From Candidatus Auribacterota bacterium (lineage in GTDB: Bacteria; Auribacterota; UBA6266), in assembly GCA_023136205.1 (NCBI GenBank), contig JAGLRQ010000027.1:1-26414 (forward strand): DNA of 26,414 nt. The letters run 5' to 3'. Numbering within the stretch: the first letter of the stretch is position 1; every line of letters begins with the position of its first letter. Below are positions 1 through 20,010 of this stretch, piece after piece. The notes beneath the pieces were generated by a model. It was given only the letters and a program-made list of their open reading frames with translations. It was not told the origin of the DNA and did not search any database. The position numbers and the translations under genes were made by a program.

Positions 1-1382
1 TTTTGGCAGTGCTTACATCCTTCACCATGAAACCAATTTGTATCTTCTTCAAATTCACTTCCCAGCGGATTAAACAGCTTTTTACAGAATTCACAATTAA
101 CCCTTACCAATCGCTGGGCCAAAATAGCACACACGGTGGAACTGACCAGAAATGGTTCACAACCCATATCAACCAGACGCGTAAGGGCACTGGAAGAATC
201 ATTAGTATGCAGTGTAGAAAAAACCAGATGCCCTGTCAAAGCGGACCTTAAAGCAATATCAGCCGTCTCTTTATCGCGAATTTCGCCCACCATAATAATA
301 TCAGGATCCTGACGTAAAATACTCTTGAGTGCCTTTGCAAACGTAATCTTATGGGCATGGTCTACCTGTGTCTGGGTAATACCTTCAATCTGGTACTCTA
401 CAGGATCTTCAATAGTAGTAATATTAACTCTCGCGGAACGAATCATGGAAAGAGCAGAATAAAGAGTTGTTGTCTTTCCGCTCCCCGTCGGGCCTGTAAT
501 AAGAATAATACCATGAGGCCTTTTTATTAACATTTTGAAGGCCTTCAGGCAGTCCTTTTCCATTCCTAACCCCGACAGAGTAATCACTCTTTTTTTCGAG
601 GGAAGAAGGCGTAACACAGCTTTCTCTCCGTGTATATTAGGTAAGACTGAAACACGAATATCCGTGGATCCATCCACATCTTCGAATACAAAACTTCCAT
701 CCTGGGGAGCACGCTTTTCAGCAATATCCAACCCGGATAGAATTTTAATCCTGGAAATAAGCGGCGGTGATAATTCCTTTGACAAAGTATTTATTTCTTT
801 TAATACACCGTCAATTCTAAATCTTACGCGCAATCTATCTTTTTGAGGCTCAATATGAATATCTGAAGACCTTTGTCTTAAAGCATCGGAAACATACTCG
901 TTTAAAACATCAACAATAGATTGGTCAATGTCATTTTCTGCCAGTATTTTCCCGGAGAAAGTTATACTATCGGCATAATTCTTCTTTAACAAAGTATTGA
1001 TAGCAGAATCACTGGCAATAAAAAAAGCAATTTGTTTATTTAACAACCTGCGCAAATTAGCGGCAACCTGTACGTTCAGAGGTTTAGAACAAGCAATGAA
1101 TAAAGTATTATTTTCTATTTTTACCGGAATAATACTGTGTCTGAACGCGAGGTTTCCCGGAATATACCTTATTGTGCTTAAATCTATATCCAACTCCACC
1201 AAATCTATATAAGGTAATTCATAAATTTCAGCTATAGAACGGGCAACATCTTCTTCAAAACAGTATCCTAATTTAATCAGAATACGGCCTAAGACATTTT
1301 TATCTTTAACTTGAAGCCTTAGAGCTTCATCCAGTTGATTCCTATTGATAACTCCCTTTTCAACTAATGCTTCCCCAATCAT
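1..1382 (-). CDS. pilB: PilB/GspE-family pilus/secretion assembly ATPase; first 460 codons only, the C-terminus runs off the left edge
   Basis: Absent from the supplied ORF track because it has no stop codon inside the window. My reverse-complement translation from ATG 1382 is open to base 1. It begins MIGEALVEKGVINRNQLDEALRLQVKDKNVLGRILIKLGY, a T2SSE_N-type N-domain. Further motifs: SSDIHIEP, RVRFRIDGVL, SRIKILSGLDIAEKRAPQDG, Walker A GPTGSGKTTT, ITTIEDPVEY, Walker B DPDIIMVGEIRD, His box TGHLVFSTLHTND, and a Zn tetracysteine CEFC...CKHC. The start lies 2 nt after the pilT stop. Confidence 0.9.
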   Translation of the reverse strand, partial: MIGEALVEKGVINRNQLDEALRLQVKDKNVLGRILIKLGYCFEEDVARSIAEIYELPYIDLVELDIDLSTIRYIPGNLAFRHSIIPVKIENNTLFIACSKPLNVQVAANLRRLLNKQIAFFIASDSAINTLLKKNYADSITFSGKILAENDIDQSIVDVLNEYVSDALRQRSSDIHIEPQKDRLRVRFRIDGVLKEINTLSKELSPPLISRIKILSGLDIAEKRAPQDGSFVFEDVDGSTDIRVSVLPNIHGEKAVLRLLPSKKRVITLSGLGMEKDCLKAFKMLIKRPHGIILITGPTGSGKTTTLYSALSMIRSARVNITTIEDPVEYQIEGITQTQVDHAHKITFAKALKSILRQDPDIIMVGEIRDKETADIALRSALTGHLVFSTLHTNDSSSALTRLVDMGCEPFLVSSTVCAILAQRLVRVNCEFCKKLFNPLGSEFEEDTNWFHGEGCKHCQ

Positions 1383-1384
1383 TT

Positions 1385-2437
1385 TCAGCTAATCCTTTTT
1401 TCAACAAGTTTTACATTCTTCGCTGTTTTGAAGAGAGTATCTTTATCAATCTTTCCCTGTTGATAAAGCTTTACCAGTGACTGCTCCATTGTCTGCATGC
1501 CGAACCCGCCGCCTGTTTCAATAGCTGAATATATTTGTTCTGTTTTACCCTGGCGTATTAAATTCCCTATACCTTTTGTTATCATCATAACTTCAACAGC
1601 CGGAATACGTATTTTTCCATCCGCGCATTTTAACAATCGCTGAGATACCACCGCTTTTAAAACTTCGGAAACTTGCTGTCTGATATATTGCTGTTCAATA
1701 GGCGGAAAAACTCCCAGTATTCTGTTGATAGATGAAACGCAATCATGGGTGTGAAGAGTTGAAAAAACCAAATGTCCGGTTTCAGCAGCAGTAACAGCAG
1801 TACGCATTGTATCTACATCCCGTATCTCTCCGACAAGAATAACATCAGGGTCTTCCCTTAAAGCATAACGCATCGCTTCTGAAAAGGAATTTACATCGGT
1901 ATAAAGCTCTCTCTGGTTAATAACACTTTTTTTATACTCATGCACATATTCAATAGGATCTTCGATAGTAATAATATTGCATGATTTAGTCTGATTTGTC
2001 ATATCAATAAGTGTTGCCAGTGTAGTACTTTTACCGCTTCCGGTAGGGCCGGTTATCAAAACCAGGCCATCGCGCAGGTCAGAAAGCCGATGAAGGCTTT
2101 CAGGCAACCCAAGACTATCAAGGCTTAAAATCGCATCGGAAAGCCTGCGAAAAGCAATAGTAATTGTGCCTTTCTGGCGATAAGCATTTATACGGAAACG
2201 CCCCAAGCCTTCAAAAGTATACGCAAGGTCAATAGAATGTTTTTTATCAAACAAATCTTTCTGTTCGGATGAGAGCAGTTCAAAAATAACCTTTTTTGTA
2301 TCACCCGGCAATACCCTTTTGTCTCCAACAGGACATAGTTCTCCATGAATTCGCAAAAGAGGCGGACTGCCTGTGGTAAGATGTAAATCTGAAGCGTTTT
2401 CTTTTACAGTGTCTTTTAAAAGCCCGCGTATGTCCAT
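1385..2437 (-). CDS. pilT: PilT-type twitching-motility (retraction) ATPase
   Basis: 350-aa ORF with no T2SSE_N domain. Motifs: Walker A GPTGSGKSTT, IITIEDPIEY, Walker B DPDVILVGEIRD, His box TGHLVFSTLHTHD, and GIGNLIRQGK, which resembles the PilT signature AIRNLIREGK. An AAGGAG Shine-Dalgarno lies upstream of the ATG. Confidence 0.92.
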   Translation of the reverse strand: MDIRGLLKDTVKENASDLHLTTGSPPLLRIHGELCPVGDKRVLPGDTKKVIFELLSSEQKDLFDKKHSIDLAYTFEGLGRFRINAYRQKGTITIAFRRLSDAILSLDSLGLPESLHRLSDLRDGLVLITGPTGSGKSTTLATLIDMTNQTKSCNIITIEDPIEYVHEYKKSVINQRELYTDVNSFSEAMRYALREDPDVILVGEIRDVDTMRTAVTAAETGHLVFSTLHTHDCVSSINRILGVFPPIEQQYIRQQVSEVLKAVVSQRLLKCADGKIRIPAVEVMMITKGIGNLIRQGKTEQIYSAIETGGGFGMQTMEQSLVKLYQQGKIDKDTLFKTAKNVKLVEKRIS

Positions 2438-2460
2438 TTTATTTTCTACTCCTTACGTTT

Positions 2461-4548
2461 CTACTCATTCCTTTTTGACATAATTTTCAATGTGTTTTTA
2501 TCGAGTTCTGCAAGCCGCTTCCTGGCCCCTTTATTTTCCGGATCAAGTTTAAGCACTTTTTTATACTCCTTTGCGGCCTCGCTAAATAAGCCCCTATTCA
2601 CGCACTCATCAGCCATCATGATATAAGCATTTATCTTATCTGAATCAAGTTTAGTTTCTGTTTTTTTAAACATCTTTTTCTTAATTTTTGAGAGGGCCTT
2701 CTTTGCCTTACTGTTGCCGGGGTCAATTTCCAAAGCTTCTTCATATTCTTCTTTTGCCTTGTCAAACATACCTCCGGTTACATATTCTTCGGCCAGTTTG
2801 ACATGTTTTTGAGCTACCGCCCTGCGCGACTTGAGCTTAACTTCTTTTTCCTCAATGGGATCTCCTTCAGAATAAAGTAAGTCCATTCCCTCATCATAAC
2901 GTAATAACTTTCCCTGCTTTTTTTTAATAAAGGGGTGCTCTGATATTTCAGCTACACAATTATTAGACACTTCCTGCCCTTCCCGCGGCGTCATCATAAT
3001 ATGCGGTGTAATCAGGAAAACAAGTTCCTTTTGTTTCTTCTCTTTCTCTGTTTTTCTGAAGAAAAATCCTAACAGGGGAATATCTCCCAAAAGTGGAACT
3101 TTATGGTCATTATCTTGAAGGGTCTCTCTTATAAGCCCGCCAATAGCTAAAGTACTGCCATCATTAGCCACTATGATATTTTCCACACGGGATGTATCTA
3201 CCACATCTATAGGCACCTCTACAGCACCTGACTTTTCGGTAACAATAGTTATAGCTGCTCCGGCATTTTTTACACTATCAACTTCCAACAAAAACCTCAT
3301 TGTCACCGTTCTGTCCTCATTTATAGATGGGGTAATGGTTATTTTTGTTCCGATATCTTTCATCTCTATAACCGGACGTACAGTCTCTGTAGTCCGGTCT
3401 TCAAATTCCCTGATTTCCTGTTCATAATTAACTGTAATCGGCCTTTTTTCTCCAACGAAAAATTCCCCGGGGGCATTATTAGCGCTCAGGATAATCGGTG
3501 TCCCTATTACTTTGAGCCTATTATCCTGGCCGAGCAGTTCAACGCGGGCTTCAATATGCTTATCAATAATAGAATAAATAAAGTTCGGCGCTGTCAAATT
3601 GGTAAAGTTTCCAACAATTATATCACTGGAACCAGGCTTAAATTTCCAATCAAAAAAAGATTTAAAATTATCGTCCAGCGTTATTTCTAAAATCTTGCAC
3701 TCAAGCAAAACCTGAGATGTAGGAGTATCTATTTCTTCAAGAAAACTATTTATTTCTTCTAAAATCCTGGGGTCAACCGAGCGGCAGATCACGTAGTTAT
3801 TTCGCGGGAATACAGCCAGATAAACAATTGCTCTGCTTTGCCTGGCATCAAAAATATCTTTAAGCTCTAGCTGGTGATCCGCGGCAGACTTTTCAAGTTG
3901 CTCAATTCTTTTAGAAGTAAGTTGTTTCCCTATTTCTACCTGCATATTATTATCATCGAGGTAATATTCTCTTTTAGTTTCTGTGTTATAGCCTCTTTTT
4001 CCACCTCCGCGATAATTATCTCGACTCCTTCCCCCCATGCCCTCTTCTGTTCCCACATGGCCATAGCTCTCAATTTCACCCGGTTCTTTATATTGAATAC
4101 GATCCCCGAAAAGATTTTCAAGCAAATCAGCAGCCGCAAGGGAAGACGCATATTTAAGTTTGTAAACAATGGTTTTTTCATCCCGCCTGATTGTCAATTC
4201 CTTCCCATACTCTTGTGCTGTCATAACACGGATAACATTATCTTCCTCGCTGTACCAAAAATTATAAAGCTTACACAAGGTTTTAAGCGCTTCGTCAGAA
4301 GTAACATTTTTCAGAAAGAGTGTTACCTTGAGTTTCATAATATCCCTGCTTGAAATCACATTCTTACCGGTCAGCTCGGTAAAAACCTTCAGGACATCAG
4401 ACATGGGTGTATTTTTAAAATCAAAGACTTCGATTCTTTGTGATTTTCCGGCCTGAGATTCATCTACATACGCATCAGATGAAAATAAAGGAAAAACTAA
4501 CATAATAAAAATCATAATCGGAAATAATAACTTATGTAGTAAATTCAT
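2461..4548 (-). CDS. Outer-membrane secretin (PilQ/GspD family) with a C-terminal TPR extension
   Basis: 695-aa ORF. It has a signal peptide (MNLLHKLLFPIMIFIMLVFPLFSS) and an N0/STN-like segment (NTPMSDVLKVFTELTGKNVI...ALKTLCKLYNFWY). The secretin C-domain ends VPLLGDIPLLGFFFRKTEKEKKQKELVFLITPHIM. A tail of about 135 aa follows with two TPR-like units (AEEYVTGGMFDKAKEEYEEALEIDPGNSKAKKAL and ADECVNRGLFSEAAKEYKKVLKLDPENKGARKRL). Confidence 0.85.
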   Translation of the reverse strand: MNLLHKLLFPIMIFIMLVFPLFSSDAYVDESQAGKSQRIEVFDFKNTPMSDVLKVFTELTGKNVISSRDIMKLKVTLFLKNVTSDEALKTLCKLYNFWYSEEDNVIRVMTAQEYGKELTIRRDEKTIVYKLKYASSLAAADLLENLFGDRIQYKEPGEIESYGHVGTEEGMGGRSRDNYRGGGKRGYNTETKREYYLDDNNMQVEIGKQLTSKRIEQLEKSAADHQLELKDIFDARQSRAIVYLAVFPRNNYVICRSVDPRILEEINSFLEEIDTPTSQVLLECKILEITLDDNFKSFFDWKFKPGSSDIIVGNFTNLTAPNFIYSIIDKHIEARVELLGQDNRLKVIGTPIILSANNAPGEFFVGEKRPITVNYEQEIREFEDRTTETVRPVIEMKDIGTKITITPSINEDRTVTMRFLLEVDSVKNAGAAITIVTEKSGAVEVPIDVVDTSRVENIIVANDGSTLAIGGLIRETLQDNDHKVPLLGDIPLLGFFFRKTEKEKKQKELVFLITPHIMMTPREGQEVSNNCVAEISEHPFIKKKQGKLLRYDEGMDLLYSEGDPIEEKEVKLKSRRAVAQKHVKLAEEYVTGGMFDKAKEEYEEALEIDPGNSKAKKALSKIKKKMFKKTETKLDSDKINAYIMMADECVNRGLFSEAAKEYKKVLKLDPENKGARKRLAELDKNTLKIMSKRNE

Positions 4549-4580
4549 TCTAGTCTACCTCTTTTTTAAACGCGCTGTCC

Positions 4581-5000
4581 TCACCTGAATCTTCCATGGA
4601 TTATATATCCACCTTCTAATAAAATAACCATTTCACTAGGGGTAATTTCTTTTATAGTAAAAGAATTAAAACTCTTACTTCCTGAAACCGAAGGCGCGAA
4701 GACTACAATGTCATTCGGCTTCAATGTTACATCTCCAAGTGTTTCAATATTCGCAGTAGCCATCGTCTTGCTGCCGGCAACCATAACACCGGTAATTTCA
4801 ATCCTGGGCAGCCTGAATTTATTTGAGCTTTGCCCTGTAAAATAAACGTATTTTTCGGAGATGGTTTTTTTAAGCAGCTCTGCGCTGACATTAAAAGGAT
4901 CTCGTTCACATTCTATTGAAGAATTTTCCTCAGCACACAGAAAACCCATTCCAATAAAAAAACAAATGATTACTGAAAGAAACCTTTTTAACATATTCAT
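4581..5000 (-). CDS. Small exported protein, PilP / GspC-HR-like (assigned by pattern and synteny only)
   Basis: 139 aa with an N-terminal signal peptide (MNMLKRFLSVIICFFIGMGFLCA). The beta-rich C-terminal segment is LPRIEITGVMVAGSKTMATANIETLGDVTLKPNDIVV...FTIKEITPSEMVILLEGG. It sits between the PilO-like gene and the secretin. GAGG lies 7 nt upstream of the ATG. Confidence 0.45.
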   Translation of the reverse strand: MNMLKRFLSVIICFFIGMGFLCAEENSSIECERDPFNVSAELLKKTISEKYVYFTGQSSNKFRLPRIEITGVMVAGSKTMATANIETLGDVTLKPNDIVVFAPSVSGSKSFNSFTIKEITPSEMVILLEGGYIIHGRFR

Positions 5001-5120
5001 TTCTCTACCTCAATTTTTTTGTGATCCAGAATGTGGCAAAATAAATCTCCACGGGCTAAAGCACATGATTTCTTTCTTACATGACCCCGCCAGTTTTACT
5101 TCGCGAAACTAACCGAGGGG

Positions 5121-5152
5121 TAATCGTTGCGCGGAATTCCGCGCAACGATTA
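5121..5152. repeat. Perfect 32-nt palindrome (16-bp arms, GAATTC centre) overlapping the stop codon of the PilO-like gene
   Basis: TAATCGTTGCGCGGAATTCCGCGCAACGATTA read directly from the sequence. It is identical to its own reverse complement. No U/T tract follows on either strand. Confidence 0.95.
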
Positions 5153-5725
5153 AATCGCAATCAACAAGGTTATTTTTAAAATATCTCTTTTCCTCTCACG
5201 TTCAATTACAACATTTTCAACAGTAACAAGCTTAGGTAATTGCCCTATGCTCTTTAAAAAAGCTTTAAAATTTACAAAATTACCGAACATTACCAGGCTA
5301 TGCCTGCTTCTTCTAAGCTCATACATCTCTTCTGTCTTAAGCTTATCTGTTTTTGAACTGGCATCTACATCTTTAAACTCATTTATTCTCAAATTATTGG
5401 CCGCGGCTATCTGGTTAATAGCAGTTAAAACCTGAGGCAAATCTTCCCTTCCGGCTAATGATAACCGTACCTCACCGAATTTAGTTTGCTCTTCACGTAA
5501 TTTTTCAGTATTTTTTTCTATTAACACAAAAATATCTTTCCCCTCTTTTTGCTGCCATTTTAGAATTCTAACCTCGCTAAAAAGTTTGGAGCATTTTTTA
5601 CGCAGGGCCTTAAATTTTTTGCTCTCAGGATCATAAACCTTTTTAACATAAAAAAAACATGCTATAACCACAACAAGGGCAATAATGCCCATCTGCTCAA
5701 ACCTGGTCATACTTTTTTTAGCCAT
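5150..5725 (-). CDS. PilO/GspM-like bitopic inner-membrane alignment protein
   Basis: 191 aa with a single N-terminal TM helix (IIALVVVIACFFYV), a coiled-coil region, then an alpha/beta C-domain. It sits directly after the PilM-PilN fusion gene. There is no diagnostic motif, so the call rests on architecture and synteny. Confidence 0.55.
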   Translation of the reverse strand: MAKKSMTRFEQMGIIALVVVIACFFYVKKVYDPESKKFKALRKKCSKLFSEVRILKWQQKEGKDIFVLIEKNTEKLREEQTKFGEVRLSLAGREDLPQVLTAINQIAAANNLRINEFKDVDASSKTDKLKTEEMYELRRSRHSLVMFGNFVNFKAFLKSIGQLPKLVTVENVVIERERKRDILKITLLIAI

Positions 5726-5738
5726 TTTTACACTCGCT

Positions 5739-7145
5739 CTACAAAACTATCTTAATTCTAAACTGATACACAAACAACTGTGATTCTTCGTTTTTTACGT
5801 GCTTCTCGCTAATAGTTTCAAGCTTTGCGTCTTTAACAACCGCCTTAAGGCTCCTCAACGTCATAACAAAACGCGTAATGGAACTGGCGGAAAGGCCGCC
5901 GCCTTCCAGGAAAATTTCATCGTTTTCATATAATATTCTATCTAATATAAGATCGGCGGGGATTTCCCGGGTTATACCATCAAATAAATCAAATAATGTT
6001 TTCTGCTGAGCAGGAAGTACCTGTTCAATATACCGTTTTTTATTTTGGATTTTGCTTACCCGCGTTTTTAGATTTTCCAGTTTCGACGCGTTATCCTGCA
6101 TTGCCTTTTTTTCAGCTTCGAAAACTTTCAGCTGCAAGGAATATTTAGCAAAAGAAAATTTCATATATCCATAGTGCAGTAAAAAACCTACAGCTATAAT
6201 AATCACGGCCGCAATGGGTAAAATATGGATTTTCTTCTTAAGTTTTTTTACCAAGCTGATCCTGTCATTAATACCCAGGCAGCTTTTTCCCAAAAACCCT
6301 AATTCATGCAGAGCGGCACCTGAAACAGACGCGTACTGAGGACCGGCATTCATGGAAGTTTCTGTATTAAAACAACACACATCATCCTGAGGTTTCCATT
6401 TTCTCACCGGGAACCCGAACATATTTTTAAGCTGATCGGTTACTTTACCATCCTGATCGCCTGCCGCAACTACTTCATATTTATCTTCTTTATTTATCCC
6501 TAACTCGGAAACAAGTGTCTCAACACTGTCAAGATGAGCATCATGAAAAGAAACAGGGCCTTCACAATTTATAAGGGCAGCCGCGACTGAATTTCCCTCT
6601 ACATTGATAATAATTTTCCCCGAGGAACCTTTTTGCAGCAGGTTAACAGAAAAAGCGAAAGCATTTTCTTTCGCGTATACAGATTGCAGTTTTATACCGC
6701 ACTTCCTGCATATATCAGATAGCTCAACAAAAGCATCACGGGGCATAGCCGTTATTACCGCGGGGGTGGTTTTCCTATTCTTATAACTGCCTGTTTGCAG
6801 CTTATAGCCGAAAAATCCTTCAGCCGCGTTAAAACTCAAATAAGGCTGAGCTTCCCACTTAACTGCTTCAAGTAACTTATCCGGAGATAGTTTTGCCCCA
6901 TGGGGTATAGGCAATTCGCTTGTTAAAAAACTCACCTCCGAACTCACTAACACCGCTTGCTTTGGATAATTCCCTAATTTTCCAAGAAGGGTTTTAACAG
7001 CTTCTTCCTGTAAAGCGCCTGGGCCTGCCTGAGATACAAAAACCTCAGCGGACGCGAGAAAAACCGTTTTTCCGCCTCTTCTTTTTACCACAACAGCTCT
7101 AAGAGCATTGCCGCAAATTTCTATTGATAAGATTTTATTCTTCAT
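5739..7145 (-). CDS. Fused PilM-PilN protein (GspL-like architecture)
   Basis: 468 aa. Residues ~1-300 are a PilM/FtsA-like actin-fold region (KILSIEICGNALRAVVVKRRGGK...). One TM helix follows (ILPIAAVIIIAVGFLLHYGYM), then a coiled coil and a periplasmic domain of about 100 aa, as in PilN. The ATG overlaps the upstream stop (TAATG). Confidence 0.7.
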   Translation of the reverse strand: MKNKILSIEICGNALRAVVVKRRGGKTVFLASAEVFVSQAGPGALQEEAVKTLLGKLGNYPKQAVLVSSEVSFLTSELPIPHGAKLSPDKLLEAVKWEAQPYLSFNAAEGFFGYKLQTGSYKNRKTTPAVITAMPRDAFVELSDICRKCGIKLQSVYAKENAFAFSVNLLQKGSSGKIIINVEGNSVAAALINCEGPVSFHDAHLDSVETLVSELGINKEDKYEVVAAGDQDGKVTDQLKNMFGFPVRKWKPQDDVCCFNTETSMNAGPQYASVSGAALHELGFLGKSCLGINDRISLVKKLKKKIHILPIAAVIIIAVGFLLHYGYMKFSFAKYSLQLKVFEAEKKAMQDNASKLENLKTRVSKIQNKKRYIEQVLPAQQKTLFDLFDGITREIPADLILDRILYENDEIFLEGGGLSASSITRFVMTLRSLKAVVKDAKLETISEKHVKNEESQLFVYQFRIKIVL

Positions 7146-8023
7146 TATCCTGAATATTCTATTTCTTCCAATGTATATGTTCCATTACCAGAAGGAAGGC
7201 AAAACATTTTAATTACCTTTACTATATTACCCGCCGCCGCATCGCGAATAACAACTTTCCTTAACCCTACCGGTATCCCGCTGCCGCCATGAACAATGTC
7301 AACAAAATTAAACAGGTGTGTTTCTCCCACAAAAGTAAAATTATGATTCTGTAATTCCGTCTGAACATTCCCCCGCCAGGAATAAAGTAACTCCACATTT
7401 AGGTTTGCTCCCGCAACAACATTATTTTTTATAGTTATATCTACTTGAGGCCTCCGCCAACAAAAAGTATCAACTATATCCCGGTCATAATCGGCGGGGG
7501 GAGGTGCGCCATCATTTATCCCATCACTGCCCCAGCTTTCTATTTCTATCCGGTCAGCTATGAAACGAACTATTATGTTATTACCCCAACCATCTCTGAA
7601 AACAGACGTGCCGCCACACTCGTCTAAGTAACAATCCCCGCGATACCCTGCCCAAAATTCACTATTATAAACATAAGGCAACCCTATCCAGGCGACACTA
7701 TTTCTATCCAGTAAAACACCTGAAAAATTGCCCGTTCCAAAAGGGTCTATATTATCAGGTTCTCCATAATCATTTATAAAGCCGCCGCAAGAAGTAATAT
7801 CCTCTCCTCCGCTAATATCAGTTAACCTGCCAATAAGTGCTCTTTTTACATCCAGCATTCTTTGCCGGGTAATATCATATCTCTCATCTTTATTTGCCTC
7901 ATGACTCAACACAAAAGCACAAATCATAACCGTTATTGCCAGAAAAGAAATTATTGCTGTCATTATTAAAAGAGCATAGCCGTTGTTGGTTGATTGGTTA
8001 ATTGGCAATTGGTGATTTCTCAT
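7145..8023 (-). CDS. Minor pseudopilin with a GspG-like globular domain but a degenerate prepilin N-terminus lacking Glu5 (GspK/PilX-like role)
   Basis: 292 aa. The N-terminus MRNHQLPINQSTNNG|YALLIMTAIISFLAITVMICAFVL is hydrophobic but has no FTLxE. It carries T2SSG-type motifs DGWGNNIIVRF and IESWGSDGINDG. Its C-terminal extension shares IPVGLR with the upstream paralog. Confidence 0.65.
   Translation of the reverse strand: MRNHQLPINQSTNNGYALLIMTAIISFLAITVMICAFVLSHEANKDERYDITRQRMLDVKRALIGRLTDISGGEDITSCGGFINDYGEPDNIDPFGTGNFSGVLLDRNSVAWIGLPYVYNSEFWAGYRGDCYLDECGGTSVFRDGWGNNIIVRFIADRIEIESWGSDGINDGAPPPADYDRDIVDTFCWRRPQVDITIKNNVVAGANLNVELLYSWRGNVQTELQNHNFTFVGETHLFNFVDIVHGGSGIPVGLRKVVIRDAAAGNIVKVIKMFCLPSGNGTYTLEEIEYSG
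7986..8015. repeat. Four imperfect tandem 7-8-bp units (TTGGTTGA TTGGTTAA TTGGCAA TTGGTGA) inside the leader-coding region of the Glu5-less pseudopilin
   Basis: Read directly from the sequence. On the coding strand this is a repeated CCAA(T) motif encoding HQLPINQSTN. Confidence 0.8.
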
Positions 8024-8040
8024 TATTTTCCTTTTTTGTA

Positions 8041-8062
8041 AACTTGTAACTTGTTCGCTTGT
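8041..8062. repeat. Short tandem repeat AACTTGT AACTTGT TCGCTTGT in the 48-nt spacer between two pseudopilin genes
   Basis: Read directly from the sequence: two perfect heptamers plus one imperfect unit. Confidence 0.8.
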
Positions 8063-8071
8063 TCTCTGCTG

Positions 8072-9022
8072 TTACTGTATCTCAATATCCCCCAGCCAGT
8101 TGCCAGTAGGCTCAATGGTAATAATTCGTTGAGCGGTCTTAGTATTTGGTACAGGAGTACTATCCGAAATAAAAATACTCCTTAAGCCAACGGGAATATT
8201 CCCATTATACAAACCCGTTCCTACTGCACCAGTTTCAAAACGGAAGTATTGATCCGCATCAAATTGGTCACCAGAAATAGCATCTGGAGTAGGATTTAAT
8301 AAAGTTTCAACACCATTTAGAGGAACATATAAACTAACTGTAACAGGGGAAGTATACCCGGGCAGTACAGACGGCAATTTCACTCTCCCTGCCAGAGGTG
8401 CCATATATTCGGCCTCCCTTATCGTTATTTCAATATCAACATCGTATCCTGTCTCTCCGCCTACATCATTGATATTATCTGCCCCATAACTTTCAATCGT
8501 AATATCTCCGCCTCCTATGGTAAAACGAAAAGGATTACCCCAGCCGTCATTTAATTTCTCCTGCCCTGGAACTTCTCCTGTTCTCAAAGGCGGAACTTCA
8601 ATATAAGGCCCGCGCCACCCCATCCAGGTTCGCGATATTGCTCTATACCCCCATATAACACTATCTGGTATATCTACAAAATCAATTGTGTCACCATCGG
8701 CATTAAAATCTCTCGTCCAAAGTCCCTTAGGCTGGCCATTTGGATCCGCAACCCCATTTTCATCGACCAAATTGGGCAATCCACCCATATCCGCCGCATA
8801 GCCGGCAAATTGCCTCTGGCCATTCGTATAAGAACCAGAACTACCTAAAATTGTCTTTTTAATCTCCGCCATCCTCAGCCTTGTTTCGTCAAACCGTTTC
8901 TGGTCATCATCTTTCATAAAAACCTGAGCCGCCATTGCCACTATAAAACCCAGAATAACCAGAACAACCAGAACTTCGATGAGGGTAAAACCTTGTTTTA
9001 AATAAATTTTTGATTTCTGCAT
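8072..9022 (-). CDS. GspG-like (T2SSG-type) pseudopilin with a C-terminal extension
   Basis: 316 aa. It has a canonical prepilin motif MQKSKIYLKQG|FTLIEVLVVLVILGFIVAMAA. T2SSG-type motifs: GWRGPYIE, DGWGNPFRF, IESYGADNINDVGG. The C-terminal extension contains IPVGLR. Confidence 0.85.
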   Translation of the reverse strand: MQKSKIYLKQGFTLIEVLVVLVILGFIVAMAAQVFMKDDDQKRFDETRLRMAEIKKTILGSSGSYTNGQRQFAGYAADMGGLPNLVDENGVADPNGQPKGLWTRDFNADGDTIDFVDIPDSVIWGYRAISRTWMGWRGPYIEVPPLRTGEVPGQEKLNDGWGNPFRFTIGGGDITIESYGADNINDVGGETGYDVDIEITIREAEYMAPLAGRVKLPSVLPGYTSPVTVSLYVPLNGVETLLNPTPDAISGDQFDADQYFRFETGAVGTGLYNGNIPVGLRSIFISDSTPVPNTKTAQRIITIEPTGNWLGDIEIQ

Positions 9023-9034
9023 TTTGATTTTATC

Positions 9035-9773
<739 letters not shown>

Positions 9774-9795
9774 TTTTTGTTTTTTTTTGCCGACC

Positions 9796-9823
9796 GTCGA
9801 CTGTAGACTGTTAACTGTAGACT
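9796..9823. repeat. 14-bp tandem duplication (GTCGACTGTAGACT / GTTAACTGTAGACT, 12 of 14 identical)
   Basis: Read directly from the sequence. It lies in the 64-nt spacer between the TPR-protein stop (9828) and the pseudopilin ATG (9763). Confidence 0.9.
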
Positions 9824-9827
9824 TATT

Positions 9828-10811
9828 TTATTCATGGTTTTCTTTCTCAATGTATTCAAGAAGCCTGTCTGAAAGCGCGGCAGATTCTTTTGAATTAAAC
9901 CCCTTTAAAAGTTTGTACTCTTTTTTTGCTGCTTCTATATCTGCCATACTTATATATAAAATCCCAAGATTATAGTGGGCTTTGAAATCATCAGGTGAAA
10001 GCGAGTTATATTTCTTATAGGCTTCTATCGCCTCTCTGTATCTTTTTGATTTTCCGTAACAGACACCGAGTTTAAAATATGCTTCCTTATCATCAGGATG
10101 TTCTTTAATCAGCTCTTTTAATTTTATAGTTGCCTCTTCATACTTACTCATTCCCATAAGATAAACGATTATCTGTCTTTTCCCTGTATCACTTTCCATC
10201 CATCCCTTAGCCCTTTTTTCTTTCCATTCTTTTATATTCAAAAGGCCGATATTTTCAAAAGAGATTCCCTTTAAGGTAGGTATAGCATAAACATAATTCT
10301 TATCCCGGATAAAAAACTCAATAATCCCCAAAACCTGCCCCTCTTTATTAAAAACAGGCAACCCCCTTATCTTTGGCATTTTAGAGTCTATTTCTATTTT
10401 TATCCTGTCTTCTATAGAGATAATTTTCCCTCTTATAGCATCCTCTCCAGGTACCTTTATATATACTTTTTCGTTTTCCTTTATCTCCCTGGCAAAATCT
10501 GCCTTTTTAAATCCATTCTCAGCAATTTTTATCTTTAGTAACTTCTTCTCTGTATTCCTTCCGCAAATCCCCTTTATTTCAAATTCTTTGCCTTCTGATT
10601 TTAAAACCGCTCTTTCCACACCGGAAAATACATAATAATGTGTAAGCACTTCGTTTTCTGAAATAAATATGCCTGCCTCTTTGCCGATAACCTTATCTTT
10701 TTGATTGTAAATCTGGATTATGGCAATGGAATCATCACCTGCAGTACAAAAAGTAAGCTGGGAAAAAAGAAAAAAGAAAATTAAAAAAGAAATCTTTGCT
10801 TTGCTCAACAT
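9828..10811 (-). CDS. Secreted protein with a degenerate (probably inactive) trypsin/HtrA-like domain fused to C-terminal TPR repeats
   Basis: 327 aa with a signal peptide (ISFLIFFFLFSQLTFCTAG). The N-domain follows the S1C pattern: GKEAGIFISENEVLTHYYVF, KKLLKIKI, KIRGLPVFNKEGQVLGII, YVYAIPT. The C-terminal TPR units are HPDDKEAYFKLGVCYGKSKRYREAIEAYKKYNSLSPDDFKAHYNLGILY. Confidence 0.6.
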   Translation of the reverse strand: MLSKAKISFLIFFFLFSQLTFCTAGDDSIAIIQIYNQKDKVIGKEAGIFISENEVLTHYYVFSGVERAVLKSEGKEFEIKGICGRNTEKKLLKIKIAENGFKKADFAREIKENEKVYIKVPGEDAIRGKIISIEDRIKIEIDSKMPKIRGLPVFNKEGQVLGIIEFFIRDKNYVYAIPTLKGISFENIGLLNIKEWKEKRAKGWMESDTGKRQIIVYLMGMSKYEEATIKLKELIKEHPDDKEAYFKLGVCYGKSKRYREAIEAYKKYNSLSPDDFKAHYNLGILYISMADIEAAKKEYKLLKGFNSKESAALSDRLLEYIEKENHE

Positions 10812-10861
10812 TATAATCCCGTCTTATTTGTCCATCTATCTATCTATAAAAACTTTTTAAA

Positions 10862-10907
10862 GAAGAAAAGGAAGGGGACAGAAGATACCTACCCCCTTCT
10901 CCTTCTT
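10862..10907 (-). terminator. Candidate intrinsic terminator/attenuator hairpin just downstream of the first (major) pilin gene
   Basis: On the minus-strand RNA, GAAGGAGAAGGGG pairs with CCCCUUCCUUUUCUUC across a loop of about 14 nt. This gives 7 perfect G/C-rich base pairs, then an internal loop, then 5 more base pairs. A U-rich stretch UUUAAAAAGUUUUU follows. Confidence 0.4.
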
Positions 10908-10934
10908 TCAAGCCTTTAATAGAGATTAGAAGGT

Positions 10935-11969
10935 TTAATGAATAGTTTCAATCCCCCAAGCCTCTACTACTTCCGGATACCTGTGTCCTTCCGGGCAGAA
11001 AATGTCAAAAGCTGCTCTCTTATACTCCCCATCCACATAGGTCAAATCAAATCTCTTTTTTTGTGAGGTTGCATCAGAAGAGTCTGCCCAGCAGGTTATA
11101 TCCTCATGCACACCACTGCCGGAAAAGCTGTCAACAGTTTCCTGTAAACGAGGAAGCACTACTACATACCACCCCCACATCGTATCATCAGCCGCTGCCC
11201 GCTCAAAACTAGGGCACTGGCCTTCAGCGGCAATAATCCTGTGCATTAACTCGCTATCAGGGCCGATACCCAAAATAAGCCTGTAAGCCCATTTCGGATC
11301 AGCAATGTCCTCACCTACCGCGTTCCAATCAGCATGGTTTGCCCAGCCCGTGCCATCACCAACGTTATCACCTCCGCCAATCATCGGCCAGGTCATGCCT
11401 GCCGGCGCGGCAGTAAGGTCAATTAAACAAAATTGTGAGGCATCATTCGCTGGAGCACCGCCCCACAAACCAGCAGGTCCATCTGCATCGTCAGAATTAT
11501 TTAACACAACTACTTCACGTATTCCCAGGTCATTAACAATTTCGTCAACTTCATCCACATTCAACACATGCGGCATAAGGCGAATTCTTTCCAATATGGC
11601 GCTTGTGAATACCTCATTACCATCTGCAATAACATTTTCTTCTGTCGGGCCATGCCAGGTACCGGCGGTATCATCGTAATAAGCAGGCACCATCATCTTG
11701 TCAGGCAATTTGCTATACTGTGTCTCAAAGGCAGAGACATACTTTTTGCTCTCCTTAATATTGCTGTCGCAGATGGTGTCCTCCGCATCCTGAAAAACGC
11801 CTAATAATTTCGGGGCAATCATCGCAAGAAGGAAACCCATGATCATGATTACCACAAGCATTTCAAGAAGCGTAAAACCCTGATTCCTCCTGCTTTTGCA
11901 TTTTTCCGTACATTTAGTACACATTTCCTTGCTTCTCCTTTTGTTTTTTTCCGCAAGCAACTTACCCAC
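10935..11969 (-). CDS. Large type IV pilin-like prepilin, first gene of the operon and candidate major subunit
   Basis: 344-aa ORF starting at GTG 11969. An alternative ATG at 11924 is preceded by AAAGGAGAA and gives the leader MCTKCTEKCKSRRNQG. The prepilin motif is NQG|FTLLEMLVVIMIMGFLLAMIAPK. The mature C-terminal domain of about 300 aa is rich in Asp, Gly, Ala and Trp, and I do not recognise its family. Confidence 0.8.
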   Translation of the reverse strand: MGKLLAEKNKRRSKEMCTKCTEKCKSRRNQGFTLLEMLVVIMIMGFLLAMIAPKLLGVFQDAEDTICDSNIKESKKYVSAFETQYSKLPDKMMVPAYYDDTAGTWHGPTEENVIADGNEVFTSAILERIRLMPHVLNVDEVDEIVNDLGIREVVVLNNSDDADGPAGLWGGAPANDASQFCLIDLTAAPAGMTWPMIGGGDNVGDGTGWANHADWNAVGEDIADPKWAYRLILGIGPDSELMHRIIAAEGQCPSFERAAADDTMWGWYVVVLPRLQETVDSFSGSGVHEDITCWADSSDATSQKKRFDLTYVDGEYKRAAFDIFCPEGHRYPEVVEAWGIETIH

Positions 11970-12130
11970 TAAGTTTTCCCTGCAGTTGTTCTGTATAAAT
12001 TTCTAAACCAGTATATTTCTTCAAGCCCCACGCTGACAGAAAACAATTGTCACAAGTTATTCTTATTTGTCTCTCACCTCCCTTTTTTAAGTGCGCAAGG
12101 TACAAGCACGCAAGCTAAACAGATATGTTT

Positions 12131-12367
12131 TTACGCTCTTGTACTCTTACCTGTGCCCATTGGGGTATACTCTTGTGTTCTAACATAGTTCACTACAAAC
12201 CTATATTGTTTACCACAATGGATGATCACTTCTTTCTGTCCTTTCTTGAGAATGCGGAATTCAACTTTTATTTCTCCATAACCATCATGTAAGAATACCT
12301 CATCATAAAGATTATTAAGCTTTGCTTTTACTTCTTTATTTGTATGCCCTTTTGCCATCATCCTCAT
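12131..12367 (-). CDS. Small hypothetical protein, possibly DUF2292/YezD-like
   Basis: 78 aa. The segment YGEIKVEFRILKKGQKEVIIHCGKQYRF resembles the YezD-family pattern (hydrophobic-G-x-V/I-x-I ... K-x-R-F). The match is weak and made from memory only. Confidence 0.4.
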   Translation of the reverse strand: MRMMAKGHTNKEVKAKLNNLYDEVFLHDGYGEIKVEFRILKKGQKEVIIHCGKQYRFVVNYVRTQEYTPMGTGKSTRA

Positions 12368-12482
12368 ATTTCAGATCCAAGACTATTTATTAGATGCAGG
12401 TAATTAAGTTATATATGCCTAACTTTTAAGCCAAAAAAAAAGTTTTGATATTAAACATACCTACCATTAAACTTAAAATTTT

Positions 12483-12953
12483 TCATTTTTTTGGACAACC
12501 TTCCGGGCGTTTTTGATGTTCGCTAAAATAATAAAAATTTTCCAACCAATCGGGGTTTTTTCCTTCAACGGAATATGTTTCAATAAATTTTACAAAATCA
12601 ATGATTTTCCTTAAAGTTTCCTTGCTCAAATAATGTTCAATCTTACAGGCATCCTCCTCAGCAGTTTTTTCTTCAATTCCAAGAATCCGGTTGAGAAACT
12701 TTTTCAATGTACTATGTCTTTCGTAGAGATTTTCCGCCTGGTTAAGCCCTTCATTGGTAAGCTTTATATAACCGTAGTGCTCATGCACAACTAAATTTTT
12801 TTCCTCTAAGTGCTTTAAAGCTTCTATAACCGATGGAGGTTTGACATCAATAAACTTCGCGACATCTTTTACCCGCACATGTTCCTTTTCTTTTTTTATA
12901 ATTAAAATACTCTCGAGATAATCTTCCAGAGCAGGACTCATTAACCTAGACAC
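12483..12953 (-). CDS. DtxR/IdeR/MntR-family metal-dependent transcriptional repressor
   Basis: 156 aa. The N-terminal winged HTH is LEDYLESILIIKKEKEHVRVKDVAKFIDVKPPSVIEALKHLEEKNLV. The dimerisation/metal domain is YERHSTLKKFLNRILGIEEKTAEEDACKIEHYLS. An AGGGGG Shine-Dalgarno lies 5 nt upstream of GTG 12953. Confidence 0.88.
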   Translation of the reverse strand: MSRLMSPALEDYLESILIIKKEKEHVRVKDVAKFIDVKPPSVIEALKHLEEKNLVVHEHYGYIKLTNEGLNQAENLYERHSTLKKFLNRILGIEEKTAEEDACKIEHYLSKETLRKIIDFVKFIETYSVEGKNPDWLENFYYFSEHQKRPEGCPKK

Positions 12954-12982
12954 TTTTGCCCCCTATTTGTTAGATAAAGCTA

Positions 12983-13011
12983 AATATATTAGGCTTCCCT
13001 ATTTTTGTCAA
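12983..13011 (-). promoter_or_regulatory. Sigma70-type promoter of the DtxR-family gene, with a DtxR-box-like operator in the spacer
   Basis: On the minus strand: TTGACA, a 17-nt spacer, then TATATT. The spacer and -10 read TAGGGAAGCCTAATATA; by hand I count 13 of 19 matches to the DtxR box TTAGGTTAGCCTAACCTAA. In a 48-nt alignment, 38 positions are identical to the feoA promoter. Confidence 0.6.
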
Positions 13012-13113
13012 GGAAAATTATTTAAATCTATAAATCGCTCAAACTAATCCAGTCCAGGAATACTTCCTGCGTGGTAAATAATAAACGCTAAAACCCAGGC
13101 AATTGCTGTTGTA

Positions 13114-14823
13114 TTATAAAATCGCGTTCAGCAAACCTCCAACAATTAAACTACTTATCAGCATGGCCAGGACACTTTTAAGCGTATCAGTTATACCTAA
13201 CTCCTTAAATAGGACAACAAAAGTAGCAATACAGGGGAAAGACATTGCCAGGGCGGTAGCAGCAACCACAAGCTGCTTGGCAGTCAAATCAAGTGTCCCA
13301 AGCATGCCCACCGCGACATCTTTACGAAGAAACCCTATCGCCATTGCTATAACTGCCTCTTTAGGTAATCCGAATACATTAGTAATAAGCGGTGCGGCAA
13401 AATCAGCCAGAACATCGAATATTTTCAGGAAATAAAGAATATTTACCACCATAATTCCTAACAGCACTATGGGAAGAGCTTCTTTTAAAAAGGCTGCCAT
13501 CCTCATCCAGAGTTTTTTAACCACTGTTTGTAGAGACGGCATCCGATAAGGAGGCACTTCCATAATCAAGCCCTGACTTTCTCCCTTAAGAATCATGTTC
13601 AGGATTCGGCCAAGAACAACCCAAACTACAAAAAGGCTCAAATATATAATTGCCACATACCTGCCGCCATGCTCCCCAACTAATCCCCATATCATCGCCT
13701 GAAGAGCGGCACAGGGAACCCCTATAGAAATTATCGTCGCCGTTATCAATCTCTCTCTCCGGCTCTCAAGAATTCGGGTAGCCATAATTCCGGGAACATT
13801 ACAACCCAGCCCTAAAAGCGTAGGAATAATAGCCCAGCCGTGAAGACCCATTCGATGCATGAGGTTATCCAGAAGCACAGCCAGCCGGGGCAAATAACCA
13901 GAATCTTCCATAACTCCCAAAACTATGTAGAAGGAAAAAATATAAGGCAAAACCATACCTATAGGAACAAAAAGGCCAGTGGTAAGAACTCCGAAAGACT
14001 GGACAAAATCAATTTCCCCATCAATTAACTTTCCGATTATAATAGAGCGAAGGAAACTTCCCGGATCTAAAATTGAACTCAATTGCATCATTAGAGGCTG
14101 CCAGAACCGCTCAAAAATCGGCTCAAAAACATTCCCGATTAACCATTCCCCAATAAAGCGAATAACTTTAAATGCGGCAAACATAACCAGAATGGCTATG
14201 GGAATCCCGCTCAGCGGCTTAACAGAAGCATCGCCAATAACTTCTAGCAGTGTGTGATGCCGGTGTTGTAATAACTGAACTTTGTCAAGAATCCTGCCTG
14301 CTTCCGTCCATTTTTCTTCCTCAGAACGCCTGGCAACCTTAGGATTACAAGCCTGGGGTATGCGCGAGACCAGTTCCTTAATGCCTTCTCCTGTAACCGC
14401 TACGGTTGGAACTACCGGAACACCAAGAAGCTCCTCCATCTTTTTAACATCAATTGTAATGCCTTTATGTTTGGCATCATCCCAGATATTGAGGGCTATA
14501 ATAACCGGTATATTTCTCTCCAAAAGATGCAATGTAAGATGAAGATTCCTTTCAAGGTTGGTAGCATCAACAACATTAATAACTGCATCTCCGTCTTTAA
14601 GCATTTCTACGGCTATCTTTTCTGCTTTAGAGGTAGCTTCCAGGCCATATGTACCGGGAACATCAATAAGAATGGCTTCCTCATCTCCTATTTTCATTGT
14701 CCCCTGAGTAAACTCAACTGTGGTTCCCGGATAATTGGAAGCAATTACATGTATTCCTGTAAGCCGGGAGAAAACTGCGCTCTTACCCACGTTAGGATTA
14801 CCCATAAGCAGTATTTTCTTCAT
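13114..14823 (-). CDS. feoB: Ferrous iron transporter FeoB (G-domain plus membrane permease)
   Basis: 569 aa. The G1 motif is MGNPNVGKSAVFSRLTG, followed by DVPGTYGL and NIWD. A polytopic membrane domain follows. The start overlaps the feoA stop by 4 nt. Confidence 0.95.
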   Translation of the reverse strand: MKKILLMGNPNVGKSAVFSRLTGIHVIASNYPGTTVEFTQGTMKIGDEEAILIDVPGTYGLEATSKAEKIAVEMLKDGDAVINVVDATNLERNLHLTLHLLERNIPVIIALNIWDDAKHKGITIDVKKMEELLGVPVVPTVAVTGEGIKELVSRIPQACNPKVARRSEEEKWTEAGRILDKVQLLQHRHHTLLEVIGDASVKPLSGIPIAILVMFAAFKVIRFIGEWLIGNVFEPIFERFWQPLMMQLSSILDPGSFLRSIIIGKLIDGEIDFVQSFGVLTTGLFVPIGMVLPYIFSFYIVLGVMEDSGYLPRLAVLLDNLMHRMGLHGWAIIPTLLGLGCNVPGIMATRILESRRERLITATIISIGVPCAALQAMIWGLVGEHGGRYVAIIYLSLFVVWVVLGRILNMILKGESQGLIMEVPPYRMPSLQTVVKKLWMRMAAFLKEALPIVLLGIMVVNILYFLKIFDVLADFAAPLITNVFGLPKEAVIAMAIGFLRKDVAVGMLGTLDLTAKQLVVAATALAMSFPCIATFVVLFKELGITDTLKSVLAMLISSLIVGGLLNAIL

Positions 14824-15059
14824 CGTTCTACCTCCACAATAACCTTATAGGACATCCCAAATCCAAGAGCTATCTGTGTGCTGCCTACACGCACAATGAT
14901 CGGGCCGCGCCCAAAAGCCGCGTTTACCCTGGTAATCTTTTTCCCGGGCCTGATCCCCAGCGCGCACAAGCGATTATGCACCCCCCGCCCACCAATAAAC
15001 TCAACGGCTGTACCTGTCTCACCGGCGTTCATATCGGTTAAAGAAATCCGTTCCACCAT
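14820..15059 (-). CDS. feoA: FeoA-domain protein
   Basis: 79 aa. It is SH3-like FeoA (LTDMNAGETGTAVEFIGG...RLCALGIRPGKKI). It sits directly upstream of and overlaps feoB. A GAGGTGA Shine-Dalgarno is present. Confidence 0.85.
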   Translation of the reverse strand: MVERISLTDMNAGETGTAVEFIGGRGVHNRLCALGIRPGKKITRVNAAFGRGPIIVRVGSTQIALGFGMSYKVIVEVER

Positions 15060-15094
15060 ATCTTCACCTCTTCTTTAAATATTAGACACAGATA

Positions 15095-15123
15095 GATATA
15101 TTAGGTATTCCTAACTTTGTCAA
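15095..15123 (-). promoter_or_regulatory. Sigma70-type promoter of feoAB, with a palindromic DtxR-box-like operator in the spacer
   Basis: On the minus strand: TTGACA, a 17-nt spacer, then TATATC. The spacer contains the inverted repeat TTAGGAATACCTAA (plus strand 15101-15114). Confidence 0.6.
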
Positions 15124-15150
15124 GAAAAAAGCTACTCCTTAATTTTTCTC

Positions 15151-19467: not shown

Positions 19468-20010
19468 TTAGCAGAAATAATCTGATACAAATTTTGAAAG
19501 TTTTGATTCTTCTTCAGGCGAAGGATTTAAGAAAGCAACCGCAACTTCATGAAAATCAAGATTTGGATTCTTTTCAACCCTTACTATCTTACCATTAATT
19601 TCCAGTAAGTATTCTTTAGAGGGTGACTCAATAACAAGATGAATAAACGCGTCCCCGGGCAATAATTCTTTGACCTTAAATAAGACACCCGAGGCGCTTA
19701 TATTCTCGGCAAAACCTTTTCTGTAAACCCCTCCTTCGGAAATTATCCTGCCGCCCTCCCTCCTGATATAAGATACACTGCAAAAAACAGGGTTCTTCTT
19801 TTTTGGTATTATATGGTACCTAACAGCAGTTCCCGCGGTAATCCTAATATACCTTCTTCTTTCACGTGAAGGTGTTCTAGACGTTCTTATCTCCGGTTTT
19901 CCGTACTGCCTCTCTGTAGAAAAAAAGTGCCCAAGAAATAAAACCATCGAGACGGCAAAAAGGACCATTCCTCCAAAAAACAACATCTGCTGTACTAATT
20001 CGTAATTCAA
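19468..20010 (-). CDS. Membrane-anchored PilZ-domain (c-di-GMP-binding) protein
   Basis: 180 aa with an N-terminal TM helix (MLFFGGMVLFAVSMVLFLG). The PilZ signatures are RxxxR (RERRRYIRI) and N-x-S-x-x-G (ENISASGVLF). The start is either TTG 20010 or ATG 19986. Confidence 0.7.
   Translation of the reverse strand: MNYELVQQMLFFGGMVLFAVSMVLFLGHFFSTERQYGKPEIRTSRTPSRERRRYIRITAGTAVRYHIIPKKKNPVFCSVSYIRREGGRIISEGGVYRKGFAENISASGVLFKVKELLPGDAFIHLVIESPSKEYLLEINGKIVRVEKNPNLDFHEVAVAFLNPSPEEESKLSKFVSDYFC

Follow-up and report, generated by a model that had tools for sequence, protein, structure and literature searches.

A probable type IVa-class pilus operon with a large prepilin and three GspG-type pilins in Candidatus Auribacterota

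Type IV pili have been annotated in Auribacterota (PMC9324843) and in nearly all Omnitrophota, where they are tied to a host-attached lifestyle (PMC10066038). The described systems closest to the locus presented here are the type IVa pili (T4aP) of diderm bacteria such as Pseudomonas aeruginosa, Myxococcus xanthus and Thermus thermophilus, the primary type IV pilus cluster of Clostridioides difficile, the type II secretion systems (T2SS) Etp of Escherichia coli O157 and Eps of Vibrio, and the mannose-sensitive haemagglutinin (MSHA) pilus of Vibrio cholerae. In current reviews the T2SS is regarded as a T4aP descendant without PilT (PMC10191384, PMC6668835). The locus lies on contig JAGLRQ010000027.1 of an uncultured Candidatus Auribacterota bacterium of the PVC group (assembly GCA_023136205.1, contig labelled Candidatus Aureabacteria), and the 26,414 nucleotides analysed, which are the entire contig, are called the window throughout. 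An earlier note, made from the letters of this DNA, had described a minus-strand operon of eleven genes at the left end of the window as a mixture of T2SS-type and T4aP-type components. According to the analysis reported here, the locus probably encodes one complete type IVa-class pilus machine, whose fibre is extended and retracted, and is neither a T2SS nor a chimera of two systems.

The locus shares with the diderm T4aP the set PilB, PilT and PilC, PilN, PilO, a protein in the PilP position and a secretin, together with pilins that carry class III signal peptides and F1/E5/P22. The best structural matches of its PilB are Thermus PilF and Geobacter PilB, and those of its PilT are true PilTs. 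Unlike in the diderm systems, a single operon contains all components but the peptidase, PilM is fused to PilN, and the secretin is devoid of AMIN domains and nearer to GspD by score. Three GspG-domain paralogues with C-terminal beta-sandwiches replace PilY1 and FimU/PilVWX, the presumed major pilin has 313 residues and a head unlike solved structures, and a conserved orphan small gene stands upstream. The C. difficile cluster, by its published description, is likewise compact, contains PilT and has PilM fused to PilN (PMC6916266), and a homologous cassette in the same order occurs in another member of the Bacillota, Desulfofarcimen acetoxidans. Compared with C. difficile, the window version adds the protein in the PilP position and an outer-membrane secretin.

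Likeness to the T2SS is found in the single operon, in the T2SSG domain of the pilins, in a large pilin without Glu5 directly before the fused PilM-N gene (the position of GspL), which is followed by PilO in the position of GspM, and in a secretin and a platform protein that score best with GspD and GspF models. The locus differs from the T2SS in having PilT, an ATPase with an MshEN N-domain, alignment proteins that match PilN and PilO, a first pilin whose head is not GspG-like and secretin-less relatives in a Bacillota genome, and in giving no match to GspC, GspH-J, a true GspL or GspM. The MSHA system resembles it in its single locus, a fused PilM/N-like protein, TPR repeats near the secretin and the MshEN motif for cyclic di-GMP (c-di-GMP). 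Here, unlike in MSHA, PilT is part of the operon, MshM is missing, the secretin is not MshL-like by score and the TPR module is a lineage-specific fusion.

Machinery genes and conservation of the cassette

The eleven consecutive open reading frames (ORFs) on the minus strand of window positions 1-11969 have the coordinates and order of the earlier note, and the spacers agree with it as well (a 1-nt overlap, then 2, 12, 13, 23 and 32 nt, and two long ones of 123 and 149 nt). Its parts list was right: Pfam and NCBIfam profile searches recovered T2SSE with MshEN, TIGR01420, Secretin with TPR, PilO, PilN and N_methyl. Its gene count was too low, a conserved small gene upstream having been overlooked, and the operon comprises at least 12 genes. 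The absence of a platform protein proved to be an artefact of the window edge. By exact look-up the PilT sequence is identical on a 538-kb ENA scaffold, where PilB has 530 residues and is followed, 72 nt on, by a 408-aa T2SSF platform gene. The note had also pointed to the left of base 1 for pilC and pilD; pilC is present there, and no gene for a prepilin peptidase (PilD) occurs in scaffold positions 42.7-86.4 kb. An unlinked pilD is ordinary for type IV pili.

The operon was assigned to a deep-branching lineage of the T4aP class on discrete characters, namely a true PilT, PilN and PilO without GspL, GspM or GspC, and the cassette of D. acetoxidans. PilT scores 435 bits with TIGR01420 against a cut-off of 319 and, among solved structures, 302-328 bits with PilTs and 248 with PilU. 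By these scores it ranks as a true, dedicated PilT, as had been claimed from its motif GIGNLIRQGK, which stands where AIRNLIRE is expected. The gene lies 2 nt upstream of pilB and is translationally coupled to it, and five of the six related loci whose sequence reaches this position keep it in the operon. In locus L016 (7299-10728) the secretin gene is followed directly by pilB, a natural PilT-less variant of the cassette.

The PilM-PilN fusion consists of a cytoplasmic actin-like domain, an IHILP motif with a transmembrane helix and a periplasmic PilN domain, and has 13 close relatives. Its PilN part scores 27.3 bits in Pfam (cut-off 22.8); its PilM half matches pilM TIGR01175 below the cut-off (E 8.8e-5) and PilM_2 with E 0.075. 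PilO scores 40.9 bits (cut-off 22). No matches to GspL, GspM or GspC (T2SSL, T2SSM, T2SSC) were obtained in the locus even at E<=10, and alignment of the fusion with E. coli EtpL by hhalign gave a probability of 0.4%. The description of the fusion as GspL-like and therefore T2SS-like thus does not hold; since the same fusion is known from C. difficile type IV pili (PMC6916266), it is no T2SS signature. From the labels PilO/GspM-like and PilP/GspC-like the PilO part stands. The 139-aa exported protein, conserved in six loci, has a beta domain behind a conserved ERDPF motif; it has no match in Pfam, NCBIfam or the PDB, where its family profile found neither PilP nor GspC, so that it is named PilP by position and pattern only.

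PilB combines T2SSE with an N-terminal MshEN domain. Against the PDB it scores 459 bits with Thermus PilF, 420 with Geobacter PilB and 374 with GspE, scores that are similar over the core region alone. Its c-di-GMP motif (NF053729) reaches 52 bits against a cut-off of 38, and control of PilB by c-di-GMP is a possibility. The secretin has N0-like and N1 domains before its secretin domain (Pfam Secretin 137.7 bits) and additional TPR matches. Its TPR tail, at about residues 565-695, is lineage-specific; relatives align only to about residue 575. In place of this extension (TPR in window 2461-2860), a small domain with NFAIINLG..DG..GD is found in L007, L011 and L012, and L014 has none.

The cassette was found in seven related loci from PVC-group metagenome-assembled genomes labelled Candidatus Omnitrophota, and six of the seven are syntenic over all genes that they contain; the survey of relatives that had been proposed thus came out in favour of a conserved unit. 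Desulfobacula, Methylomarinum, the Bacillota isolate D. acetoxidans and many contigs from metagenomes carry more distant forms. In D. acetoxidans DSM 771 the order is small protein, large pilin, GspG-type pilins, PilMN fusion, PilO and PilT, and a secretin is missing. A cassette maintained where an outer-membrane channel is missing cannot be a T2SS. The cassette is one coherent, vertically conserved unit. The mixture that had been noted is real at the level of best matches (a tie for PilB, and GspF, GspD and GspG), but these matches belong to one conserved cassette and not to a chimera.

The accessory protein had been called trypsin-like with TPR repeats. The TPR matches stand; Trypsin_2 is matched only remotely (E 0.027), and the closest PDB structure is that of the RsgI9 sensor domain, which is S1C-like (E 5e-5). 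Tyr, Lys and Arg take the places of the catalytic His, Asp and Ser, and do so in both orthologues as well. The idea of an active protease was rejected because all three catalytic positions are substituted, and the protein appears to be a catalytically dead pseudoprotease fused to TPR repeats. The gene occurs in the window, L012 and L016 only. In L007 (6705-8063) its slot is filled by a 452-aa protein matching Pfam Omptin, an outer-membrane protease barrel, and in L009 a 486-aa TPR protein follows PilC instead.

Pilins and the orphan small protein

The large prepilin is encoded by the first of the pilin and machinery genes. Its ATG at 11924, preceded by a good ribosome-binding site (AGGAG), is the likely start, and cleavage at RRNQG|FTLLEM leaves a mature protein of 313 aa (N_methyl match, E 2.6e-8). 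Among the orthologues, F1, E5 and P22 are present in all seven loci and G14 in all but one; among the four pilins of the locus the set F1/E5/G14/P22 is found only here. The family comprises 93 clusters at E<=1e-10, mostly of 300-370 aa. An AlphaFold (AF2) model was obtained with a pLDDT of 87.8, and the head gave no Foldseek match with E<1 in the PDB.

A hairpin stands directly behind this gene. A terminator scan located a 12-bp stem at 10899-10871, and the segment 10850-10925 has a fold energy of -33.2 kcal/mol (z -3.8). Of 12 loci from several phyla, 10 have a strong hairpin at the same place behind the large pilin, and the stem-loop looks like a terminator or attenuator. A search for a sigma-54 promoter upstream of the gene gave nothing beyond chance. 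The second long spacer of the operon also contains a strong hairpin (z -3.0) and, in addition, a 32-nt palindrome, so that the conspicuous structures noted earlier in both long spacers were confirmed.

The other three pilins are related to one another: the 242-aa and 292-aa proteins are paralogues of the 316-aa pilin. The 316-aa pilin contains the core motifs WRGPY, DGWGNP and SYGADNINDVGG between an N-terminal helix and a C-terminal beta-sandwich. The window copy matches Pfam T2SSG below threshold (16.2 bits, E 0.011, residues 154-196), and 37 of the 56 aligned members of a family of at least 108 proteins match it, the best with E 2.4e-11; the GspG-type motifs are thus real, as are the unusual pilin sizes reported together with them. 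Its AF2 model (pLDDT 89.2) shows a long N-terminal helix, a small core and the beta-sandwich, and the Foldseek matches in the PDB cover the beta-sandwich only, which is CBM20- or transthyretin-like. Glu5 is present in the mature protein, and position 22 is Gln in the window and Gln, Arg or Lys across loci. The 242-aa pilin (cleavage MDYGLWTKTG|FTLLEI, 232 aa mature) has an N_methyl match, tblastn cross-matches to the 316-aa pilin, Glu5, and Gly at position 22 in most loci. The 292-aa pilin, with a predicted cleavage NNG|YALLIM, has no Pfam match; N_methyl is matched by the other three of the four pilins. Every locus has a hydrophobic residue at position 5, no orthologue has Glu there, and position 22 is Phe or Tyr where read. 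The 292-aa protein, without Glu5, resembles GspK or PilX, and its gene stands directly before that of the PilM-N fusion, in the manner of gspK before gspL. It is a putative tip or priming pilin.

Pro22 is missing from all three GspG-type pilins and Glu5 from one of them, which is why they are taken as minor pilins, presumably forming a priming or tip complex. The 329-aa protein is the likely major fibre subunit, because the F1/E5/G14/P22 set is confined to it, the Glu5-less pilin lies beside pilMN and the hairpin is conserved. Single E. coli Etp templates (EtpG for GspG), a weak single-sequence kind of template, aligned by hhalign only over the N-terminal helix for both pilin families. GspH matches in the pilins of the locus are confined to the N-terminal helix, and no profile matches to GspI, GspJ or GspK were found among the locus proteins. 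On a 5.3-Mb metagenome-assembled chromosome (L025) the cassette core of large pilin, pilin242-like protein, PilMN and PilO (1-3948) lies six kb from a block of five to six paralogous GspG-type pilins, the largest of 473 aa (8934-15754), which adjoins dockerin and PKD/beta-helix proteins.

The small gene begins the conserved arrangement 206 nt upstream of the large-pilin gene. Its product has neither a signal peptide nor a hydrophobic segment, is typically about 65 aa long, and contains a core, LYDxxFxHDGYGEIKVExRILKKGQKEVIIHCGKQYRFVV, that is nearly invariant across phyla. By tblastn, five related loci have it at the same position, upstream of their large-pilin orthologue, with 67-76% identity, and Desulfobacula has it there with 48%; it is better conserved than the pilins themselves. 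The family contains 113 proteins from Omnitrophota, Bacillota, Armatimonadota, Kiritimatiellota and Proteobacteria and has no match in Pfam, NCBIfam, PHROG or PDB. A pilin of 319 or 365 aa is encoded directly behind the small gene in D. acetoxidans and Methylomarinum vadi; behind each of the two copies in M. vadi stands a gene of about 365 aa. Further copies were located at L007 4132-4314, L012 4623-4799, L028 6001-6249, and L029 6001-6192 and 8697-8888.

A metagenome scan yielded 327 relatives of the small protein. A pilin, mostly of 316-366 aa, starts within 700 nt of the gene in 30 of the 65 fetched loci with enough downstream sequence, and behind it come pilin242-like and GspG-type pilins and, after these, a PilM-like gene. 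In a second context (L047, L048, L055, L059, L074, L076, L098, L101 and L102) the gene precedes, by about 160 nt, Sec-exported proteins of about 230-255 aa with AVWD...YAEWN[VI]F motifs that are not pilins; the small protein is therefore not exclusive to pili. As a guess, it might regulate genes for surface proteins. In L033 and L095 it precedes a gene for a Ser/Thr-kinase-like protein.

A type IVa-class pilus and the alternatives

Several observations weigh against a T4aP-class pilus with a 329-aa major subunit. The core proteins are, by sequence, equidistant between T4aP and T2SS. Full-length PilB scores 533.4 bits with the PilB model TIGR02538 and 533.0 with the GspE model TIGR02533, both below the cut-offs; the platform protein has GspF as its best model (310.6 bits, cut-off 424); and the secretin prefers GspD (169.7 bits) to PilQ (138.6) and MshL (117), all below their cut-offs of 351, 284 (TIGR02515) and 250, and has GspD (81 bits) before PilQ (63) as its best PDB match. 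A neighbour-joining tree of the ATPases, for which three of the 9 reference sequences were transcribed by hand from PDB alignments, shows the clade of this PilB, with 84% support, outside proteobacterial GspE, with deep nodes at 1-14%; its backbone is unresolved, and the tree was rejected as a classifier. In the c-di-GMP motif the initiator Met takes the place of the first Arg, a position that varies among orthologues. FimU/PilVWX-type minor pilins gave no matches, the set being unlike that of a textbook T4aP; the operon has no PilY1-like gene, and pilD is absent from the scaffold segment searched. A major pilin of 313 aa would exceed every one of the 1,955 sequences in a survey of major pilins, where the maximum was 279 aa (PMC11046646).

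In an alternative within the same machine the roles are swapped, a GspG-type pilin such as the 316-aa protein being the major subunit and the 329-aa protein a low-abundance tip adhesin or effector pilin. GspG is the major subunit of the T2SS and the GspG-type family is large here, a subunit larger than every known major pilin (PMC11046646) may pass the secretin poorly, and a head without structural relatives is often seen in modular adhesin pilins. This arrangement is nevertheless rather unlikely: only the 329-aa family combines Pro22, Gly14 and Glu5, its gene comes first and is followed by the position-conserved hairpin, and the GspG-type genes are packed tightly with the machinery, as is usual for minor pilin genes.

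That the locus is a T2SS, or a surviving intermediate between T4aP and T2SS in which a short GspG-type pseudopilus pushes folded proteins through the secretin while PilT was kept, appears improbable. The GspG-domain pilins, the preference of platform and secretin for GspF and GspD, the equidistance of the ATPase from GspE and PilB and a resemblance of the fused PilM-N to GspL (PMC10191384) would fit, but PilT is conserved in the operon, matches to GspC, GspL, GspM and GspH-K are absent, and in the secretin-less D. acetoxidans cassette secretion across an outer membrane makes no sense; the PilB clade also lies outside the proteobacterial GspE clade, with weak support. An MSHA-type pilus can hardly be credited. 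PilT is absent from MSH loci (PMC10191384) and present here, MshM is lacking, the MshL model ranks below GspD and PilQ and far under its own cut-off, and the TPR module on the secretin, which recalls MSHA, is a tail specific to this lineage. The order PilMN, PilO-like, PilP-like, secretin, TPR, MshE-like ATPase and platform does mirror mshI-J-K-L-N-E-G and the MshE-type motif scores above its cut-off, but the MshEN domain is common in PilB as well. The T4aP-class pilus machine therefore remains the preferred interpretation, and the earlier hybrid reading largely dissolves.

Neighbouring genes, proposed mechanism and meaning

The palindrome in the second long spacer (Table 1) has a GAATTC centre. 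It occurs once in the window, and outside it only in identical contigs from the same population; since it is unrepeated in the window and absent from related loci, a role as a conserved regulatory element was rejected. Genes for a DtxR-type iron repressor and FeoA/FeoB adjoin the upstream side of the operon (window 12483-14823) and also lie near the operon of a relative, downstream of pilC (L011 9533-11572). This adjacency of pilus and iron genes could be coincidence or loose linkage. Also on the minus strand, 7.5 kb from the operon (window 19468-20010), lies a gene for a PilZ-domain protein of 180 aa with a membrane anchor (Pfam PilZ, E 2.5e-10), a candidate for a possible connection to the MshEN-domain PilB.

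Table 1. Features of the pilus locus in transcription order (window coordinates unless a locus is named)
Feature	Coordinates	Strand	Remarks
Small cytoplasmic protein	12131..12367	-	78-aa ORF, 75 aa as called; family without library match
Large prepilin, putative major pilin	10935..11924	-	329 aa; longest ORF to GTG at 11969
Stem-loop, terminator/attenuator-like	10850..10925	-	GA/CU-rich stem and U-rich tract
Exported accessory protein, apparent pseudoprotease-TPR	9828..10811	-	signal peptide, degenerate S1C-peptidase-like domain, C-terminal TPR
GspG-type pilin paralogue 1, putative minor pilin	9035..9763	-	242 aa; longest ORF to 9859
GspG-type pilin paralogue 2, putative minor pilin	8072..9022	-	316 aa, 305 aa mature
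GspG-type pilin paralogue 3, putative tip/priming pilin	7145..8023	-	292 aa
PilM-PilN fusion	5739..7145	-	468 aa; Pfam PilN above cut-off
PilO	5150..5725	-	191 aa; Pfam PilO above cut-off
Perfect 32-nt palindrome TAATCGTTGCGCGGAATTCCGCGCAACGATTA	5121..5152	strand-less	overlaps pilO stop codon
Exported protein in PilP position	4581..5000	-	139 aa; position and ERDPF pattern
Secretin with C-terminal TPR extension	2461..4548	-	695 aa; Pfam Secretin
PilT retraction ATPase	1385..2437	-	350 aa; TIGR01420
PilB-type extension ATPase	1..1382	-	first 460 of 530 aa; window edge cuts gene
PilC/GspF platform	L001 12721-13947		408 aa; beyond window edge; T2SSF match on source scaffold

A mechanism can be proposed from these parts. 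The analysis shows what the parts are, that the cassette is conserved and which N-terminal signatures the pilins carry, whereas the choice of the major pilin, the tasks of the minor ones, c-di-GMP control and the use of the fibre are inferred. The four prepilins would be cleaved after the conserved Gly by an unlinked prepilin peptidase. The PilB hexamer, whose MshEN domain is possibly c-di-GMP-responsive, would drive the PilC platform, and the 313-residue pilin would be polymerised into the fibre. The three GspG-type pilins would prime assembly and sit at the tip, the Glu5-less one entering first. The PilM-N fusion and PilO would hold the motor, and the protein in the PilP position would link both to the secretin, through which the fibre would leave the cell. 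PilT would depolymerise the fibre and thereby retract it. The hairpin behind the pilin gene may let the pilin exceed the machinery in amount. Attachment to surfaces or to host or prey cells is a plausible use of such a fibre, and predatory bacteria are enriched in large pilins (PMC11046646).

The existence of type IV pili in these phyla is not new. Apparently new, in the literature searched, are the combination of a pilin longer than 300 aa, whose head has no match, with three GspG-domain minor pilins that end in beta-sandwiches, the occurrence of the conserved cassette in several phyla, and the orphan small protein. Tentatively, the cassette of the invariant orphan protein of about 65 aa, the pilin of more than 300 aa, the GspG-domain minor pilins, PilM-N and PilT might represent an unrecognised subtype of type IV pili in PVC-group candidate phyla, Desulfobacterota, some Proteobacteria and Bacillota, with the small protein as a dedicated regulator or chaperone for surface-protein genes and a lineage that may be near the stock of T2SS pseudopilins and GspL.

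Type IV pili are regarded as a central element in the life of Omnitrophota-like nanobacteria, which is attached and possibly predatory or parasitic; reports so far have recorded these pili only as present or absent. The locus supplies an anatomy of the machine, which may build the thickest pilus subunit so far. GspG-type pilins, a fused PilM-N and a Glu5-less pilin before the fusion, all usual marks of the T2SS, coexist with PilT in one conserved lineage, which bears on the origin of the T2SS from T4aP. The tiny, near-invariant protein linked to these pilins is now exposed and is accessible to experiment in cultured carriers, among them D. acetoxidans and M. vadi.

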